A DNA stretch of 64,000 bases from an uncultured Candidatus Saccharibacteria bacterium (GCA_964350985.1 CAYGLK010000001.1:158636-222635); one strand, 5' to 3'; positions 34,132 through 57,789 are shown, numbered from the stretch's first letter. The notes: generated by a model from the sequence alone, not told the origin. A program made the numbers and translations.

Positions 34132-35397
34132 ATGCGACAGTCACAACTATTTACCAAGACAAGAAAAGAGGCTCCAGCTGATGAGGTGTCAAAAAATGCA
34201 CAACTCTTGATCAGAGCTGGTTATATTTCTAAAGAAATGGCTGGGGTGTACGCATACTTACCGCTAGGTTTAAGAGTACAAGAAAAAATAAAACAAATAG
34301 TTAGAGAAGAAATGGATGCTATCGGTGGCCAAGAGCTGATCATGACTGCGCTACAAAATAAGCAGATCTGGGAACAGACTGGGCGTTGGGACGATAAGGC
34401 TGTTGATGTTTGGTTTAAGTCAGAATTAAATGCCGGTGGTGAAGTTGGTTTTGGCTGGAGTCATGAAGAACCAATCGGTAACATGATGAAGACTTACATC
34501 AGTAGTTACAAAGATTTACCAAAAACTGTCTATCAGTTTCAAACTAAACTCCGCAATGAATTAAGAGCAAAAAGTGGCATTATGCGCGGCCGGGAGTTCG
34601 TCATGAAAGATGCTTACTCATTTTCTGTGGGCGAAGAAGACCATAATGTTATCTACGAAGCGATGAAAGTTTCTTATATGAATGTTTTTAGGCGAACAGG
34701 AGTAGGTGATGACACCTTCATTACTTTTGCTTCAGGTGGAGCTTTCACGGAGTTCAGTCATGAATTTCAAACTATTTGTGACGCAGGGGAAGATATTTGT
34801 TATGTTTCAAAAGAAAAAAACATCGCTATTAATGAGGAGGTATATTCACCGGAGACTTTAAAGGAGCTCGGAGTTAGCGAGTCAGAATTAGAAAAAACTA
34901 GCACTGCAGAAGTTGGTAACATCTTCAATTTCGGCAGACAAAAAGGTGAAGATATCGGACTTCATTACAAAAATGAAGCAGGAGAAAATGTGGCTGTTTG
35001 GATGGGTTCATACGGAATTGGAATTACTAGACTCATGGGTGTGATCGCTGAAAAATTTGCTGACGAAAAGGGATTAGTATGGCCAGAGAGCATCGCTCCA
35101 TTTAAGGTTCATTTAGTAGCTTTAAATACTGATAACCAAGAACTGGTTGACTGGGCTGATGGTCTTTATACTTCTCTTAAAGAAAAGGGAGTTGAGGTTC
35201 TATACGATGACCGTGATGCTAGGGCCGGGGAAAAGTTTGCTGACAGTGACTTGATCGGTATCCCTTACCGGATTGTGGCTAGCAAAAAGAATAAAGAGGA
35301 GGGAAAATTTGAGGTTGTCACACGAGCTACTGGTGAAGTTAGAAACTTAACTGAAGAGGAAATATTTACTGATTTTGATAGTAATCCAGATACGTAG
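34132..35397 (+). CDS. proS: proline--tRNA ligase (short form, 421 aa)
   Basis: The N-terminus MRQSQLFTKTRKEAPADEVSKNAQLLIRAGYI and the class II motifs are typical of ProRS. Confidence 0.85.
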   Translation: MRQSQLFTKTRKEAPADEVSKNAQLLIRAGYISKEMAGVYAYLPLGLRVQEKIKQIVREEMDAIGGQELIMTALQNKQIWEQTGRWDDKAVDVWFKSELNAGGEVGFGWSHEEPIGNMMKTYISSYKDLPKTVYQFQTKLRNELRAKSGIMRGREFVMKDAYSFSVGEEDHNVIYEAMKVSYMNVFRRTGVGDDTFITFASGGAFTEFSHEFQTICDAGEDICYVSKEKNIAINEEVYSPETLKELGVSESELEKTSTAEVGNIFNFGRQKGEDIGLHYKNEAGENVAVWMGSYGIGITRLMGVIAEKFADEKGLVWPESIAPFKVHLVALNTDNQELVDWADGLYTSLKEKGVEVLYDDRDARAGEKFADSDLIGIPYRIVASKKNKEEGKFEVVTRATGEVRNLTEEEIFTDFDSNPDT

Positions 35398-39893: not shown

Positions 39894-40055
39894 TTTAAAC
39901 TATTCAAAATTCCCATCTACTTTGTTGCGTTCGTCGCTCACAAATTCACTGTACACTTGTACACCTCATGTGTTTGCTCCTCCGCGCCGCGTAGCTGGAA
40001 ATTTTTAATTAGTTTAAATAACTTGCGAATCGTAAAATTCTTTGTTGCACCAAGA

Positions 40056-40094
40056 AAAAGACCGGCGCCTTACGGCGCCGGTCTTTTGCGTTTC
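40056..40094 (+). terminator. Rho-independent terminator about 160 nt after greA and 30 nt before lysS
   Basis: aaaagaccggcgcc-ttac-ggcgccggtctttt followed by GCGTTTCG. Confidence 0.6.
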
Positions 40095-40124
40095 GATCAT
40101 TAACACGCTATCATTGAGCTACTT

Positions 40125-42011
40125 ATGTCAGGATTAGATGAAGTGCGCGCAGAGCGCCTCAAAAAACTAGAATTACTAAAATCAAAAGGAATTAACCCTT
40201 ATCCAGGAAAGGTAAATCGCACACACGAAATCAGTCAATTATTGGCTGACTTTAGTAAGATTGAAGCCAATAAAGAAATCGTTACTATTGCGGGAAGAGT
40301 TATGGTTGTTCGAGGTCAAGGAGCAATCATGTTTGTAGTGCTTCAGGACGCCTCAGGTAAGCTCCAAGCAGTTTTTAAGGAAGATGGTATCGATGCTGAG
40401 CTATTCCAACTTTTTAAGGATGTGGTTGATGGTGGGGACTTTATCGAAGTAACCGGAAGTCTCTTTGTTACCCAAAGAGGAGAGAATTCTGTCTTAGTAG
40501 AATCATGGCGCATGATCACAAAGAGTATTTTACCTTTACCTGACAAATACCATGGTCTGCAAAACGAAGAAGAACGTTTTCGTAAGCGTTACCTAGATCT
40601 TCTTGGGCGAGACGAATTAAGAGAGATGTTCAAACGAAAAGAAAAGTTCTGGGATGTTACTCGGTCGTTCTTGAAGGATCAGGGCTTTACTGAAGTTGAA
40701 ACACCAACTCTAGAGATAACTACTGGCGGAGCTGAAGCTAGACCTTTTGCAACCCATCACAATGACTTCGATCTTGAGGTCTATCTCCGGATCTCTATCG
40801 GTGAACTTTGGCAGAAGAGACTACTGGCTGCTGGTTTTGAAAAAATATTCGAAATAGGACGAGCTTACCGAAATGAAGGCAGTAGTCCAAACCATCTACA
40901 AGAATTTACGAACCTAGAATTCTATCAAGCTTTTGCTGATTACGAAGATGGTATGAGGTTAGTTGAAAGCCTGTATCGGACAGTAGCCGAAGAGGTTTAC
41001 GGTACAACTAAATTCACTAGAGGGGAGCATACTTTTGATCTAGCAGATGACTGGGTACGAGTTGACTATGCTGGTGAAATCAAAAAACAAACTGGAGTAG
41101 ATATTACTACTGCCACTGAAGCAGAAATAAAAGAGAAGCTCAATACACTAAATGTAAAATACGATGGCGAAAATCTAGAAAGATTAACTGACTCTTTGTG
41201 GAAGTATTGTCGAAAGAATATTTCTGGACCAGCTTTCTTAATTAATCATCCAAAGTTAGTTTCACCACTAGCTAAAGCAGTCGTCGGTAATGAAACAGCC
41301 ACGCAACGTTTCCAACCGATCATTGCCGGAACAGAAGTAGGGAATGGGTACTCAGAGCTGAATGACCCAATAGATCAGCGGGCACGGTTTGAAGAACAAC
41401 AAACTCTGATTGATCGAGGTGACGCTGAAGCGATGATGCCTGACTTCGAATTTGTTGAGATGCTTGAGCATGGAATGCCGCCGGCATGTGGGTTTGGTTT
41501 CGGTGAAAGACTCTTCTGTATCTTTGAAGATAAGCCAATTCGCGAGACACAATTTTTCCCGTTGATGAAGCCAAAGGAATCAGAATCAGCTTTGTTAAAC
41601 AAGGAAAAAGAAGTTGCTGTAGTGATAATTGACACTAGTAAGTTAACAGAATCCTGGCAAATATTAAATACAGTGGCTCATCTTTCTGCATCTTTTGCAG
41701 CTCGCGATGGTAAAAAACTTTTTTTCACAGATAGCGCTAAAACAAGTGACGGAAAAAATGTTCCAATGAATATTCAACATGCAATTATGATAAAAAAAGG
41801 AGTTGGATTATCTTTAAATATTTCCGATTTACCAGCGAACTGTGATTTTTTCCCATTTACTCGTGAAATGATCGAAACAACAAATGATAAAAAAATTATC
41901 ATTTCTTTGAAAGAAAAAAAATCTGCTGATGTTGAGTTACTGGGAGTGTTAATCTTTGGACCACGAAGTGTAGTAGAGAATTATACAAAAGATTACGAAC
42001 TATATTCTTAA
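40125..42011 (+). CDS. lysS: lysine--tRNA ligase (class II) with a ~140-aa C-terminal extension of unknown function
   Basis: N-terminal anticodon-binding OB fold (GRVMVVRGQGAIMFVVLQDASGKLQAVF) and class II motifs. The protein is 628 aa vs about 500 aa typical. The C-terminal tail is not similar to anything recognised. Confidence 0.85.
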   Translation: MSGLDEVRAERLKKLELLKSKGINPYPGKVNRTHEISQLLADFSKIEANKEIVTIAGRVMVVRGQGAIMFVVLQDASGKLQAVFKEDGIDAELFQLFKDVVDGGDFIEVTGSLFVTQRGENSVLVESWRMITKSILPLPDKYHGLQNEEERFRKRYLDLLGRDELREMFKRKEKFWDVTRSFLKDQGFTEVETPTLEITTGGAEARPFATHHNDFDLEVYLRISIGELWQKRLLAAGFEKIFEIGRAYRNEGSSPNHLQEFTNLEFYQAFADYEDGMRLVESLYRTVAEEVYGTTKFTRGEHTFDLADDWVRVDYAGEIKKQTGVDITTATEAEIKEKLNTLNVKYDGENLERLTDSLWKYCRKNISGPAFLINHPKLVSPLAKAVVGNETATQRFQPIIAGTEVGNGYSELNDPIDQRARFEEQQTLIDRGDAEAMMPDFEFVEMLEHGMPPACGFGFGERLFCIFEDKPIRETQFFPLMKPKESESALLNKEKEVAVVIIDTSKLTESWQILNTVAHLSASFAARDGKKLFFTDSAKTSDGKNVPMNIQHAIMIKKGVGLSLNISDLPANCDFFPFTREMIETTNDKKIIISLKEKKSADVELLGVLIFGPRSVVENYTKDYELYS

Positions 42012-55198: not shown

Positions 55199-56161
55199 AT
55201 GGTAAAAAAACGAGTCCTAACAGGATTACAGCCTTCTGGCGTATTGCATATCGGAAACTACTTCGGTTCACTTAAACCTTTGGTTGATTTAGCTGGCGAT
55301 AAGAATAATGAGACCTTCTTAATGGTGGCTGATTATCACGCTTTAACTTCACTTAAGGATGCTGAACTCCTCCGAAAATATATTTACGATATAGTAAAAG
55401 ATTATCTCGCTGCCGGAGTAAATCCTGACGAGGTTGTCCTCTTTAGACAATCTGATAATCCAGACCATATGGAATTAGGTTGGATTTTAAACTGTCTAGT
55501 AACAGTACCTTTTTTGATGCAAGCACACTCATATAAAGATAAGGTGGCTAAGGGCTTAGATGCTAATGCTGGACTCTTTACTTACCCGATGCTCATGGCT
55601 GCAGACATCTTGCTCTACGATACAGATATGGTTCCAGTGGGCGAAGACCAGAGGCAGCATATTGAATACGCACGTGAAGCAGTGACTAAATTTAATAATG
55701 CATTCGGTGAAGTCTTAAAAGAGCCAAAAGAATTGATTGTTCAAGGAGTCGGTGTTGTTCCTGGCACAGACGGACAGAAAATGAGCAAGAGTTACAAAAA
55801 CACTATCCCTCTTTTTGGTACTAAAGATGAAATAGAAAAAGCAGTTATGAGTATTGTGACTGATTCATCTGGAGAGCGTCCTCAGCACGTCTATAACATT
55901 CATAATGTTATTTACCGAGCCTTAGGTAAAAGTCAAAGTGATTTAGTTACTCTATACGAAGACCATAAAGGGAAGTACAAGATTCTTAAATATATCCTAG
56001 TAGAAGATATTGAAACTGTTGTTGGACCAATGCGAGAAAAACGAAATACAATTACTGATGAAGAGGTTAAAGAGTTGCTAGAAAAAGGAGCTAAAAAGGC
56101 TAGAGCAGTCTCTAAGGAAAAGATGGAGACAATTAGAAAAGCTGTTGGTATATCGCTTTAG
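55199..56161 (+). CDS. trpS: tryptophan--tRNA ligase
   Basis: Class I motifs: the HIGH region (GLQPSGVLHIGNY) and KMSKS. Confidence 0.9.
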   Translation: MVKKRVLTGLQPSGVLHIGNYFGSLKPLVDLAGDKNNETFLMVADYHALTSLKDAELLRKYIYDIVKDYLAAGVNPDEVVLFRQSDNPDHMELGWILNCLVTVPFLMQAHSYKDKVAKGLDANAGLFTYPMLMAADILLYDTDMVPVGEDQRQHIEYAREAVTKFNNAFGEVLKEPKELIVQGVGVVPGTDGQKMSKSYKNTIPLFGTKDEIEKAVMSIVTDSSGERPQHVYNIHNVIYRALGKSQSDLVTLYEDHKGKYKILKYILVEDIETVVGPMREKRNTITDEEVKELLEKGAKKARAVSKEKMETIRKAVGISL

Positions 56162-56168
56162 TTTCTCC

Positions 56169-56197
56169 TTGACCAAGTACAGTTCTGTTTATACAAT
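56169..56197 (+). promoter_or_regulatory. sigma70-like promoter TTGACC-17-TACAAT driving the aspS leader
   Basis: Seen directly; it places the transcription start about 187 nt upstream of the aspS ATG. Confidence 0.5.
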
Positions 56198-56203
56198 CAA
56201 GTA

Positions 56204-56391
56204 AACCAAAGAAGCAGCTGACACTGCTGAGGTGAGAGCAGAAAAGCCTGTCGGGCTTAGTAGACCTCTCCGTCTTTTGCACGAAACGCATATCTCAAAG
56301 CGCTCTACCTTATAAGTAGAGAAGTAGGGTGGCACCGCGGTTCTACCGCCCCTATATTACTAACTAGTTAATATACAAACCCTAAAAAGAT
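56204..56391 (+). ncRNA. T-box riboswitch-like leader upstream of aspS
   Basis: AGGGTGGCACCGCGG at about 56326-56340 is an exact match to the conserved T-box sequence AGGGUGGNACCGCG. N=C would pair with the G discriminator of tRNA-Asp/Asn. It is immediately preceded by a perfect stem III-like hairpin (ctctac-cttataa-gtagag). Upstream helices contain a GAC (Asp) codon in a loop. A small hairpin gcggt-tct-accgc follows; no strong U-tract terminator is seen. Confidence 0.55.
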
Positions 56392-57789
56392 ATGCAAAGA
56401 ACAATGATAAGCTCACTCAGTGAGCAGGTAGGAAAGGAAGTTAAAATCTGTGCCTGGGTAGACGTATCACGTCTGCAAGGGAAGATGGCTTTTTTTGATT
56501 TTCGAGATCGAAGTGGGAAAGTGCAAGGAGTTGTTTTCGGAAAGCCTGAAGTATTGGAGGTGGCTAAGTCTCTTAGAACAGAGTTCGTGGTGGCAGTTAC
56601 CGGAATGGTTAATGCTCGTCCAGAAAAAATGCGAAATGATAAAGTTCAGAATGGTGACATTGAACTTGAGATTACTGGAATTGAAGTACTAAACGAAGCA
56701 GAAACAACACCATTTGAAATTACTGAGAATTCTATCAATAAAGATGAGGAAATGCGTTTAAAGTATCGCTACCTTGATCTTCGGACTGAGAGAATGCAAA
56801 AGAATATAAAAGTTAGAAGTGAGTTCGTACGACGCTGTCGAGAGTTTTTGATGAAGCAAGACTTTGTTGAAATTGAGACACCACTTTTGACAGAATCAAC
56901 ACCAGAAGGTTCACGTGACTTTGTGGTACCAAGTCGTCATCATCCAGGTAAGTTTTACGCATTGCCACAATCACCGCAACAGTACAAGCAGCTCCTAATG
57001 AATGCTGGTTTTGAACGCTATGTACAAATTGCTCGTGCTATCCGTGACGAAGACCTCCGAGCTGATCGAGGATATGAACATACTCAAGTCGACGTTGAAA
57101 TGTCTTTTGTTGAGCGCGATGACGTGATGCAGATGATTGAGGACATGATTACAGAAGTAGTTGAATCAATGGGTCATACAATCAAACAAAAGCCTTTTCC
57201 ACGTGTTACTTATGCTGAGTCAATGGCAAAATATGGAGCCGATAAGTTTGATATGCGAGACGAAGAGGATAAAAAGAATGGAGTGCTGGCTTATGCTTGG
57301 GTAATTGATTTCCCTTTCTTTGAAAAGACTGATAAAGGTACTTGGACATTTACACACAATCCATTCTCAATGCCAAAGGAAGAACATCTTTCAGACTTGA
57401 TGGAAGGAAAGAATATCGAGAATATTTTAACCTCTCAGTACGACTTGGTTTGTAATGGATTTGAAGCTGGAGGGGGAAGTATCCGTTCACATAAACCAGA
57501 GATCTTAAAAGCAGTTTACAAAGTGATGGGTAATACAGACGAAGAGACGGCAGAAAAGATCGGACACATTCTAGAAGCATTTACTTTTGGTACTCCACCA
57601 CATGGAGGTATCGCTCTTGGGGTTGAAAGAAATGTTATGAATCTAACTGGAGAAGATGCCTTACGTGAAGTTCAGGCTTTCCCAATGACACGAAAAGGAC
57701 AAACCGCTGTGATGAATGCTCCTAAAGCGCTGACTGTTGAACAGATGCTAGAGCTGGGTCTTTCAGTTAATAAAAAGAAAGGGGAGTAG
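56392..57789 (+). CDS. aspS: aspartate--tRNA ligase, short form lacking the GAD insertion
   Basis: ARAIRDEDLRADRGYEHTQVDVEMSF matches the bacterial AspRS motif-2 region (FRDEDLRADRQPEFTQID.EMSF). 465 aa. Confidence 0.8.
   Translation: MQRTMISSLSEQVGKEVKICAWVDVSRLQGKMAFFDFRDRSGKVQGVVFGKPEVLEVAKSLRTEFVVAVTGMVNARPEKMRNDKVQNGDIELEITGIEVLNEAETTPFEITENSINKDEEMRLKYRYLDLRTERMQKNIKVRSEFVRRCREFLMKQDFVEIETPLLTESTPEGSRDFVVPSRHHPGKFYALPQSPQQYKQLLMNAGFERYVQIARAIRDEDLRADRGYEHTQVDVEMSFVERDDVMQMIEDMITEVVESMGHTIKQKPFPRVTYAESMAKYGADKFDMRDEEDKKNGVLAYAWVIDFPFFEKTDKGTWTFTHNPFSMPKEEHLSDLMEGKNIENILTSQYDLVCNGFEAGGGSIRSHKPEILKAVYKVMGNTDEETAEKIGHILEAFTFGTPPHGGIALGVERNVMNLTGEDALREVQAFPMTRKGQTAVMNAPKALTVEQMLELGLSVNKKKGE

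Follow-up and report, generated by a model that had tools for sequence, protein, structure and literature searches.

The question raised by this locus is whether a gap between two aminoacyl-tRNA synthetase genes of a CPR/Patescibacteria genome holds a T-box riboswitch and, if so, whether that riboswitch still controls the gene behind it. T-boxes have been described in Firmicutes, Actinobacteria, Chloroflexi, Deinococcus-Thermus and a few Deltaproteobacteria (PMC2494555), and gene regulation in CPR/Patescibacteria has been called virtually unknown (PMC11665869). No paper linking T-boxes to CPR/Patescibacteria was found in the searchable literature, the coverage of which is incomplete, so that this counts as absence of evidence only. 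A sequence-only reading of the locus had proposed a T-box-like leader upstream of aspS. We compared this leader with those of 171 loci, comprising 80 aspS loci from species-level CPR genomes, 80 metagenomic loci and 11 contigs that encode the closest AspRS.

A T-box of reduced architecture upstream of aspS

The window, i.e. the whole 64-kb stretch of DNA analysed here, has a G+C content of 39.8%. Within it, trpS (55199–56161) is followed by a 230-nt gap that contains the leader and then by aspS (56392–57789; genes by NCBIfam assignment); aspS and all features of the leader lie on the + strand. The gene begins with the ATG at 56392 and encodes an AspRS of 465 aa, which matches NF001750 with 581 bits in two stretches of the 590-position profile. 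The enzyme is bacterial-type, and the insertion (GAD) domain is absent. It is 92% identical to metagenomic proteins and approximately 80–84% identical to Paceibacterota, Nomurabacteria or Kaiserbacteria proteins, and an exact look-up found no second contig with an identical AspRS. Its homologues are 433–499 aa long in all of the best 120 listed and, judging by the few source names given, apparently belong to CPR. A ProRS-like protein encoded at 34132–35397 is also short, with 421 aa matching two stretches of a 559-position profile.

A sigma-70-type promoter, TTGACC-17-TACAAT (10/12 matches), occupies 56169–56197, exactly where the sequence-only reading had placed it. It is conserved in the closest relatives, being kept as CTTGACC-N17-TATACAAT/TAGAAT in L161, L163, L164, L081, L020, L168, L170 and L171. 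Transcription probably starts near 56204, and the proposed leader length of approximately 187 nt agrees with the position of the promoter and the ATG at 56392.

With E-value thresholds, RF00230 (T-box) matches 56200–56356 across the full model with 54.6 bits (E = 2.7e-11 when the region alone is searched, 3.8e-9 for the whole window). This is below the Rfam gathering score of 93 for RF00230, and a default scan of the whole window at the gathering threshold reports tRNA-Asn alone and no T-box. The low score has its cause in distal Stem I: where the model has 74 consensus positions, the window and all relatives have just 4 nt. The search that had been proposed as a check therefore gave a divided answer, in that the score falls short of the threshold but a Stem I with a specifier is present, albeit ultrashort and with the codon in its terminal loop. 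Among the relatives, the best RF00230 score is 54.9 bits; all lie below the gathering score and several are undetected at E < 0.01. Elements of this kind in CPR have therefore been overlooked by routine annotation. R1, a covariance model that we built from 12 leaders, finds a single copy in the window (173 bits), and neither Rfam nor R1 detects another T-box there, despite the presence of trpS, proS-like and lysS genes.

We read the anatomy of the sensor from the Rfam alignment, a structural alignment and an unfitted RNAalifold run. The ultrashort Stem I (56205–56233) consists of a C-stem (ACC/GGU), a K-turn, a 5-bp helix (AGCAG/CUGCU) and the apical loop CUGACA (56218–56223). The K-turn, which is recognised at the sequence level only, has the bulge AAA (56208–56210) and the tandem GA (56211–56212) opposite a second GA (56229–56230); both GA dinucleotides are invariant or nearly so among the relatives. 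The 5-bp helix covaries, with AU changing to GC, CG and UA. Its 6-nt apical loop exposes the specifier codon GAC (Asp; 56220–56222), as had been suggested, followed by the conserved 3′ purine A (codon and purine, 56220–56223). The AG bulge and the distal loop, which form the distal Stem I platform, are absent from the leader, which leaves nothing for the tRNA elbow to stack on.

Stem II (56234–56270) has the base helix GAGAG/CUCUC, the S-turn strand AGUAGA (56259–56264) and the distal helix AAGCC/GGCUU. The base helix is 97.6% paired, and four of its five pairs have changed on both sides; the distal helix shows compensatory changes and is variable in length, and the AGUAGA strand is conserved. 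Stem IIA (CGU/ACG, 56271–56283) is part of an element that extends to 56292 and includes the IIA/B pseudoknot, in which loop UUUGC (56276–56280) pairs with GCAUA (56288–56292). The pseudoknot of the window contains one U-U mismatch, which is the sole sign of decay in the sensor. Three of its four pairs covary (UA/AU/GC; UA/CG), although the helix lies outside the alignment model.

Stem III (CUCUAC/GUAGAG with a 7-nt loop, 56303–56321) is a perfect 6-bp hairpin, 97.4% paired among the leaders and changed on both sides in 5/6 pairs, and is followed by a conserved GAAG (RAG) linker. The T-box sequence AGGGTGGCACCGCGG (56326–56340) lies just 3′ of it, inside the bulged antiterminator. The conserved 14-nt T-box sequence AGGGUGGNACCGCG has its exact match AGGGTGGCACCGCG at 56326–56339, and this stretch is invariant in 12/12 close relatives. 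The antiterminator, or discriminator (56325–56354), is composed of helix A1 (UAGGG/CCCUA), the 7-nt bulge UGGCACC (56330–56336) and helix A2 (GCGGU/ACCGC), with a local dG of −11.7 kcal/mol; A2 covaries. A perfect hairpin in the Stem III position, a perfect T-box sequence near the 3′ end of the leader and the UGGC within it had all been pointed out beforehand, and all three are present.

Conservation, specifier and ligand

In 18 distinct leaders, 92.9% of the alignment cells at paired positions hold standard pairs, compared with 39–47% when the 3′ partners are slid by 1–3 columns. Changes on both sides occur in 28 of 41 pairs, and the observed values were reached by 0/500 shuffles. Since this alignment was fitted to the model, it favours the structure from the outset. 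Two further results escape this bias: the pseudoknot covaries outside the model, and an RNAalifold run on a plain MAFFT alignment yields Stems I, II and III, both strands of the pseudoknot with their helix and, independently of the model, the bulged form of the antiterminator. The sensor of the window is 81–90% identical to those of its relatives, whereas third codon positions of aspS are only 45–55% identical (positions 1 and 2, 91–93%). Conservation of the sensor far above that of third codon positions, together with the covariation and the specifier, makes the identification of a functional T-box family secure at the level of sequence. The proposal of a T-box leader upstream of aspS thus stands, backed by the Rfam alignment, by at least 18 relatives in which the element is conserved and covaries, and by specifiers that change only among Asp and Asn codons: the leader is a genuine T-box with a reduced architecture.

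Of the 80 species-level CPR loci, only 4 have the core of the T-box in front of aspS according to a strict motif search. Among the metagenomic loci, 17 of 21 with an AspRS at least 75% identical carry the leader, but just 1 of 59 more distant ones, and all 11 contigs with the closest AspRS (86–92% identity) have it; R1 returns this architecture in the 17 loci and the 11 contigs alike. The ultrashort Stem I design is common to at least 25 related CPR aspS leaders. In other CPR lineages, R1 matches upstream of aspS in L028, L066 and L070, and upstream of a small ORF that precedes aspS in L058 and L060. A T-box-like match in another Patescibacteria MAG (L044:205–359; R1, 34.4 bits) lies upstream of trpE/trpG-like ORFs, which, judged by eye from their translations, resemble components I and II of anthranilate synthase. 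The trpS–aspS synteny is conserved in the clade. The leader is absent in L085, L091, L093 and L100 (76–79% AspRS identity), where aspS follows 3–13 nt after the trpS stop codon; complete loss of the T-box leader is thus recurrent in the clade.

A second, still smaller design, which we call type B, is found upstream of aspS in L086–L097, L058 and L060 (e.g. L087:1305–1432). Lacking Stem II and the IIA/B pseudoknot, these leaders pass from the K-turn and a 4-bp helix with the CUGACA loop through an A-rich linker of approximately 14–22 nt to Stem III, which covaries; the discriminator and a strong terminator follow. Rfam detects none of the type B leaders at E < 0.01. Their contacts with the tRNA would be limited to its anticodon and its 3′ end. 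To our knowledge, this would be the most minimal natural T-box design known.

The specifier of the relatives is GAC, or GAU (Asp; L092), or AAC (Asn; L028, L066 and L099), always at the same position of the loop and upstream of aspS, as expected for the leader of an AspRS that possibly also charges tRNA-Asn. The three AAC leaders are located at L028:2270–2417, L066:2203–2442 and L099:1161–1431, and the bulge of L066 reads UGGU, not UGGC. Their sequences suggest that the AspRS enzymes of L028, L066 and L099 may be non-discriminating and that the leader senses tRNA-Asn.

Bacterial tRNA-Asp has G73, and its GCCA 3′ end could pair with UGGC. No tRNA-Asp gene is present in the window or in any of the 171 loci, and the anticodon and discriminator base of the ligand therefore come from general knowledge only. 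The tRNA-Asn encoded in the window also has discriminator G, compatible with UGGC. From the GAC specifier, we infer that tRNA-Asp is the ligand.

The expression platform in relatives and in the window

Relatives in the wider clade have, downstream of the antiterminator, an arm (...UGCAGGGGCGAUU) that re-pairs with its 3′ strand (AAUCGCCCCUGCA...) and leads into a U-rich tail. This competing structure reaches a dG of −25 to −41 kcal/mol, compared with −8 to −18 kcal/mol for the antiterminator, and in most relatives that possess it, at least 5 of the next 8 nt are U. A simple terminator scanner missed these terminators because their stems are bulged; we used RNAfold energies and U counts instead, and the evidence for them is thermodynamic and sequence-based. 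L170 and L171 (86–87% AspRS identity) have a textbook terminator, ACCGCCCCUAUAUUAUU-CAC-UAAUAAUAUAAUUGGGGCGGUUUUUU (also given as ACCGCCCC...GGGGCGGUUUUUU). In the subclade with 88–92% AspRS identity, the arm has shrunk to AAGGG and the U-run is gone, leaving a hairpin of −14 to −16.5 kcal/mol against an antiterminator of −11 to −13 kcal/mol, 6 to 23 nt away from the ATG. Two leaders of this subclade (L163:1338–1500 and L020:2329–2500) carry a highly structured insertion of approximately 170 nt in the loop of the hairpin that follows the T-box, with a dG of −53 to −62 kcal/mol for the 3′ region; conceivably, a small mobile element has inserted there or the RNA has gained a further domain.

The leader of the window was thought to have no strong intrinsic terminator, and indeed none is called on its + strand. 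The G-rich 3′ arm is missing, and what remains of the hairpin is an all-A/U remnant, UAUAUUACU...AGUUAAUAUA (56353–56375). Without the 5′ strand of the T-box, the 3′ region reaches only −8.6 kcal/mol, and the remnant overlaps the antiterminator by at most 2 nt. In the alignment, a gap of 5–15 nt in the window stands opposite ...ATGGGTT / AAGGGTT / ATTGGGGCGGTTTTTTG in the relatives. The arm is thus present in the relatives and absent here, although a sequencing or assembly error at the deletion may have contributed. Folding of the leader, which had been recommended as a check, identifies Stem I, the specifier loop and the antiterminator; no helix on the 3′ strand of the antiterminator, whether terminator or sequestrator, competes with it in the window, whereas such a helix is present in the relatives.

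Canonical terminators are used elsewhere in this genome, e.g. at 40058–40092. The region around this example is a 231-nt gap upstream of lysS (39894–40124), which is strongly structured (z = −5.07) and ends in a perfect terminator, AAAAAGACCGGCGCC-UUAC-GGCGCCGGUCUUUUGCG (approximately 40058–40092), about 35 nt 5′ of the lysS ATG. The gap contains no T-box and has no significant Rfam match (ar35, 27.9 bits, E = 0.27); an attenuator or leader that has escaped recognition is conceivable here, as is simply the terminator of the upstream gene. The encoded LysRS (40125–42011; NF001756, 513 bits) carries a C-terminal DUF2000 at residues 499–627, an unusual fusion.

Further downstream in the aspS leader, segment ACCCUA (56379–56384), which we call X2, is predicted to pair with the 5′ strand of the T-box, UAGGGU (56325–56330). 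In the relatives, X2 is a pyrimidine segment just 3′ of the terminator U-run (e.g. CUUCCUGC, UUUCCCCUUUG), seen in L170, L171, L001, L156, L096, L087–L089, L018, L078 and others. It is complementary to the 3′ arm of the terminator in 13 of 21 leaders (f < 0.05 vs shuffles), but to the T-box strand in only three of the 21. We therefore rejected UAGGGU:ACCCUA as a conserved OFF state; the pairing in the window is best explained as a by-product of an X2 orphaned by the loss of its partner. In read-through transcripts, X2 could pair with the 3′ arm and so produce a four-segment, two-state arrangement. A small inversion, with CAAACCCTA as the reverse complement of a TAGGGTTTG-like arm, was also considered. 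This segment aligns directly with X2 of L161 (GCCCCTAAAAT), and as loss of the arm by simple deletion is enough to account for the observations, the inversion was dropped.

Since the terminator is missing, the sequence-only reading had suggested control at translation initiation. A Shine–Dalgarno (SD)-like tetramer precedes just 7 of the 46 ORFs of at least 150 aa in the window, and aspS has none. A TATAAT-like hexamer ends 5–13 nt 5′ of the start codon in 8/46 ORFs, with distances peaking at 6–11 nt. Because such hexamers lie close to the starts and SD sequences are nearly absent, leaderless or very short-leader mRNAs appear to be frequent in this genome. SD sequestration, considered because AAGGG or UAGGG lies 6 nt 5′ of the ATG in L164 and L163, was rejected as a general explanation, since this genome hardly uses SD sequences and the spacing is 17–23 nt in other close relatives. 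The suggestion thus loses its footing, as the missing terminator reflects the loss of a 3′ arm and not a sequestrator design.

We consider it probable, though by no means certain, that the leader is a real tRNA-Asp T-box sensor whose attenuator has been lost or strongly weakened in this genome. By analogy with known T-boxes (PMC7583486, PMC11297988), uncharged tRNA-Asp would bind at two points, through its anticodon GUC to the loop codon and through its 3′ GCCA to the UGGC of the bulge, and would thereby stabilise the antiterminator; the missing contact with the tRNA elbow is presumably made good by Stem II and the IIA/B pseudoknot. In this lineage, the 3′ strand of the antiterminator would otherwise re-pair with the G-rich arm followed by the U-run, as in classical transcription attenuation. 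We infer that termination of transcription was the ancestral mechanism and that the window shows a derepressed state. As this genome has neither the G-rich arm nor the U-run, the antiterminator is without a competitor, and read-through into aspS most likely occurs whatever the charging state of the tRNA; aspS would then be transcribed constitutively from its conserved promoter, with the sensor still undecayed. Not everything fits this account. An intact sensor is what one would see if the arm was lost very recently, but equally if the leader still functions in some other way, and the 88–92% subclade likewise keeps a conserved sensor next to a weak hairpin, so that another output may operate there and perhaps here. 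The 54.6 bits against a gathering score of 93 and the failure to find a tRNA-Asp gene in the window and the 171 loci also count against it. Nevertheless, that the leader resembles a T-box by chance, or is a structured leader of another kind, is so improbable as to be negligible: it is consistent with the score below the gathering score and the missing distal Stem I, but is effectively refuted by the E-value of 3.8e-9, the presence of all other T-box motifs in order, a specifier that matches the gene, the strong covariation and the conservation of the element in many genomes.

If the intact sensor does act by another route, this could be a working translational switch in which the start codon itself is hidden and no SD sequence is involved. 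The start-codon region AGAUAUGC (56387–56394) is a perfect complement of GCAUAUCU (56288–56295), which includes the 3′ strand of the pseudoknot; the two would pair, as would UAGGGU and ACCCUA, and uncharged tRNA-Asp would lock the pseudoknot and the antiterminator and thereby free the start region. Ensemble prediction for the full leader pairs the AUG with 56288–56295 at a probability of 0.97–0.99, and a complement of at least 8 nt occurs in only 21 of 2000 shuffles (approximately 1%). Two changes specific to the window, U to G at −3 and G to C at +4 (Glu2Gln), lengthen the helix. The MFE with both pairings (−53.8 kcal/mol) and the energy with the antiterminator enforced (−51.2 kcal/mol) differ little, as a thermodynamic switch would require; moreover, the sensor is intact and, in an organism without SD sequences, accessibility of the start region is a plausible point of control. 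However, the evidence comes from a single genome: the helix is absent in all relatives, where the AUG pairs at 0.25–0.70 with scattered partners. For ACCCUA, there is already the explanation that deletion of the terminator arm left it without its partner; a filled decoding module alone cannot tell charged from uncharged tRNA; and with so many features examined, a chance event of 1% is not rare. A switch of this kind is therefore unlikely in our judgement. We are also doubtful, and rather more so, about the evolutionary version of this idea, in which loss of the terminator arm was followed by rewiring into a new SD-free translational T-box, with the 3′ strand of the pseudoknot sequestering the start codon and X2 held on the 5′ strand of the T-box. 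Factor-dependent regulation of transcription, e.g. by Rho, would use the C-rich, G-poor stretch ACCGCCCCUAUAUUACUAACU...CAAACCCUAAAAAG as a loading site whenever the antiterminator is not stabilised. Positions 56345–56390 are indeed G-poor with C-runs, and a sensor conserved in a subclade without U-runs implies some remaining output, but there is no rho or other such factor among the annotated ORFs of the window and the idea is pure conjecture, which leaves this route distinctly improbable. A sensor that has lost its attenuator thus remains the reading that we prefer.

The close relatives of the local clade form a graded series: some have a strong terminator, others a weak hairpin, the window no 3′ arm, and some no leader at all. 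Such a series could show how a riboswitch decays in reduced genomes. The class to which the leader belongs is more interesting than the copy in the window, which is probably a sensor without a working attenuator.

Comparison with known T-boxes

In the Firmicutes, transcriptional T-boxes such as those of B. subtilis tyrS and glyQS (RF00230) resemble the leader described here in the K-turn at the base of Stem I, in a specifier that matches the regulated aaRS and has a 3′ purine, and in the 14-nt T-box sequence. The S-turn of Stem II, the IIA/B pseudoknot, Stem III and the antiterminator with its 7-nt bulge are also shared, and the terminators of the relatives likewise share a strand with the antiterminator. 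The leader differs from the Firmicutes T-boxes in that the AG bulge, the distal loop and hence the interdigitated T-loop platform are missing, so that no contact with the tRNA elbow is made. Further differences are the specifier, which lies in a terminal rather than an internal loop, the missing 3′ arm of the terminator in the window and the CPR host. Of the usual attributes of the T-box family, the leader of the window thus lacks the distal Stem I platform, a score above the Rfam threshold and a competing terminator.

As Saad et al. reportedly described in 2012, T-boxes with an Asn specifier control the non-discriminating AspRS/GatCAB pathway in Clostridium acetobutylicum. L028, L066 and L099 share with these the AAC specifier upstream of aspS, whereas the specifier of the window is GAC (Asp).

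An ultrashort Stem I is also found in Actinobacteria, in ileS T-boxes that act on translation; these have the same apical specifier loop, Stem II, IIA/B element and discriminator. They sequester the SD sequence, and structures of the M. tuberculosis ileS T-box have been determined (6UFG/6UFH; Sherwood, Grundy and Henkin 2015, reviewed in PMC7583486, PMC11297988 and PMC12990946). In contrast to them, the CPR leaders precede aspS (and also trpE), carry an Asp or Asn specifier and, in most members, end in an intrinsic terminator, and the genome of the window hardly uses SD sequences. Descriptions of the ultrashort Stem I class have been confined to translational ileS T-boxes from Actinobacteria (PMC7583486, PMC12990946), and the class II model of TBDB was searched only in Actinobacteria and among class I matches with a truncated Stem I (PMC7778990). 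The CPR leaders represent a new class, in which an ultrashort Stem I is coupled to terminators and which scores below the Rfam threshold.

Transcriptional T-boxes are generally held to require a long Stem I for rapid capture of the tRNA (PMC7583486). We think it fairly likely that the CPR T-boxes with an ultrashort Stem I, type B included, work co-transcriptionally with their terminators. If so, they would contradict the view that transcriptional T-boxes need contact with the tRNA elbow, and would provide natural test cases for the minimal RNA that is able to read both the identity and the charging state of a tRNA.
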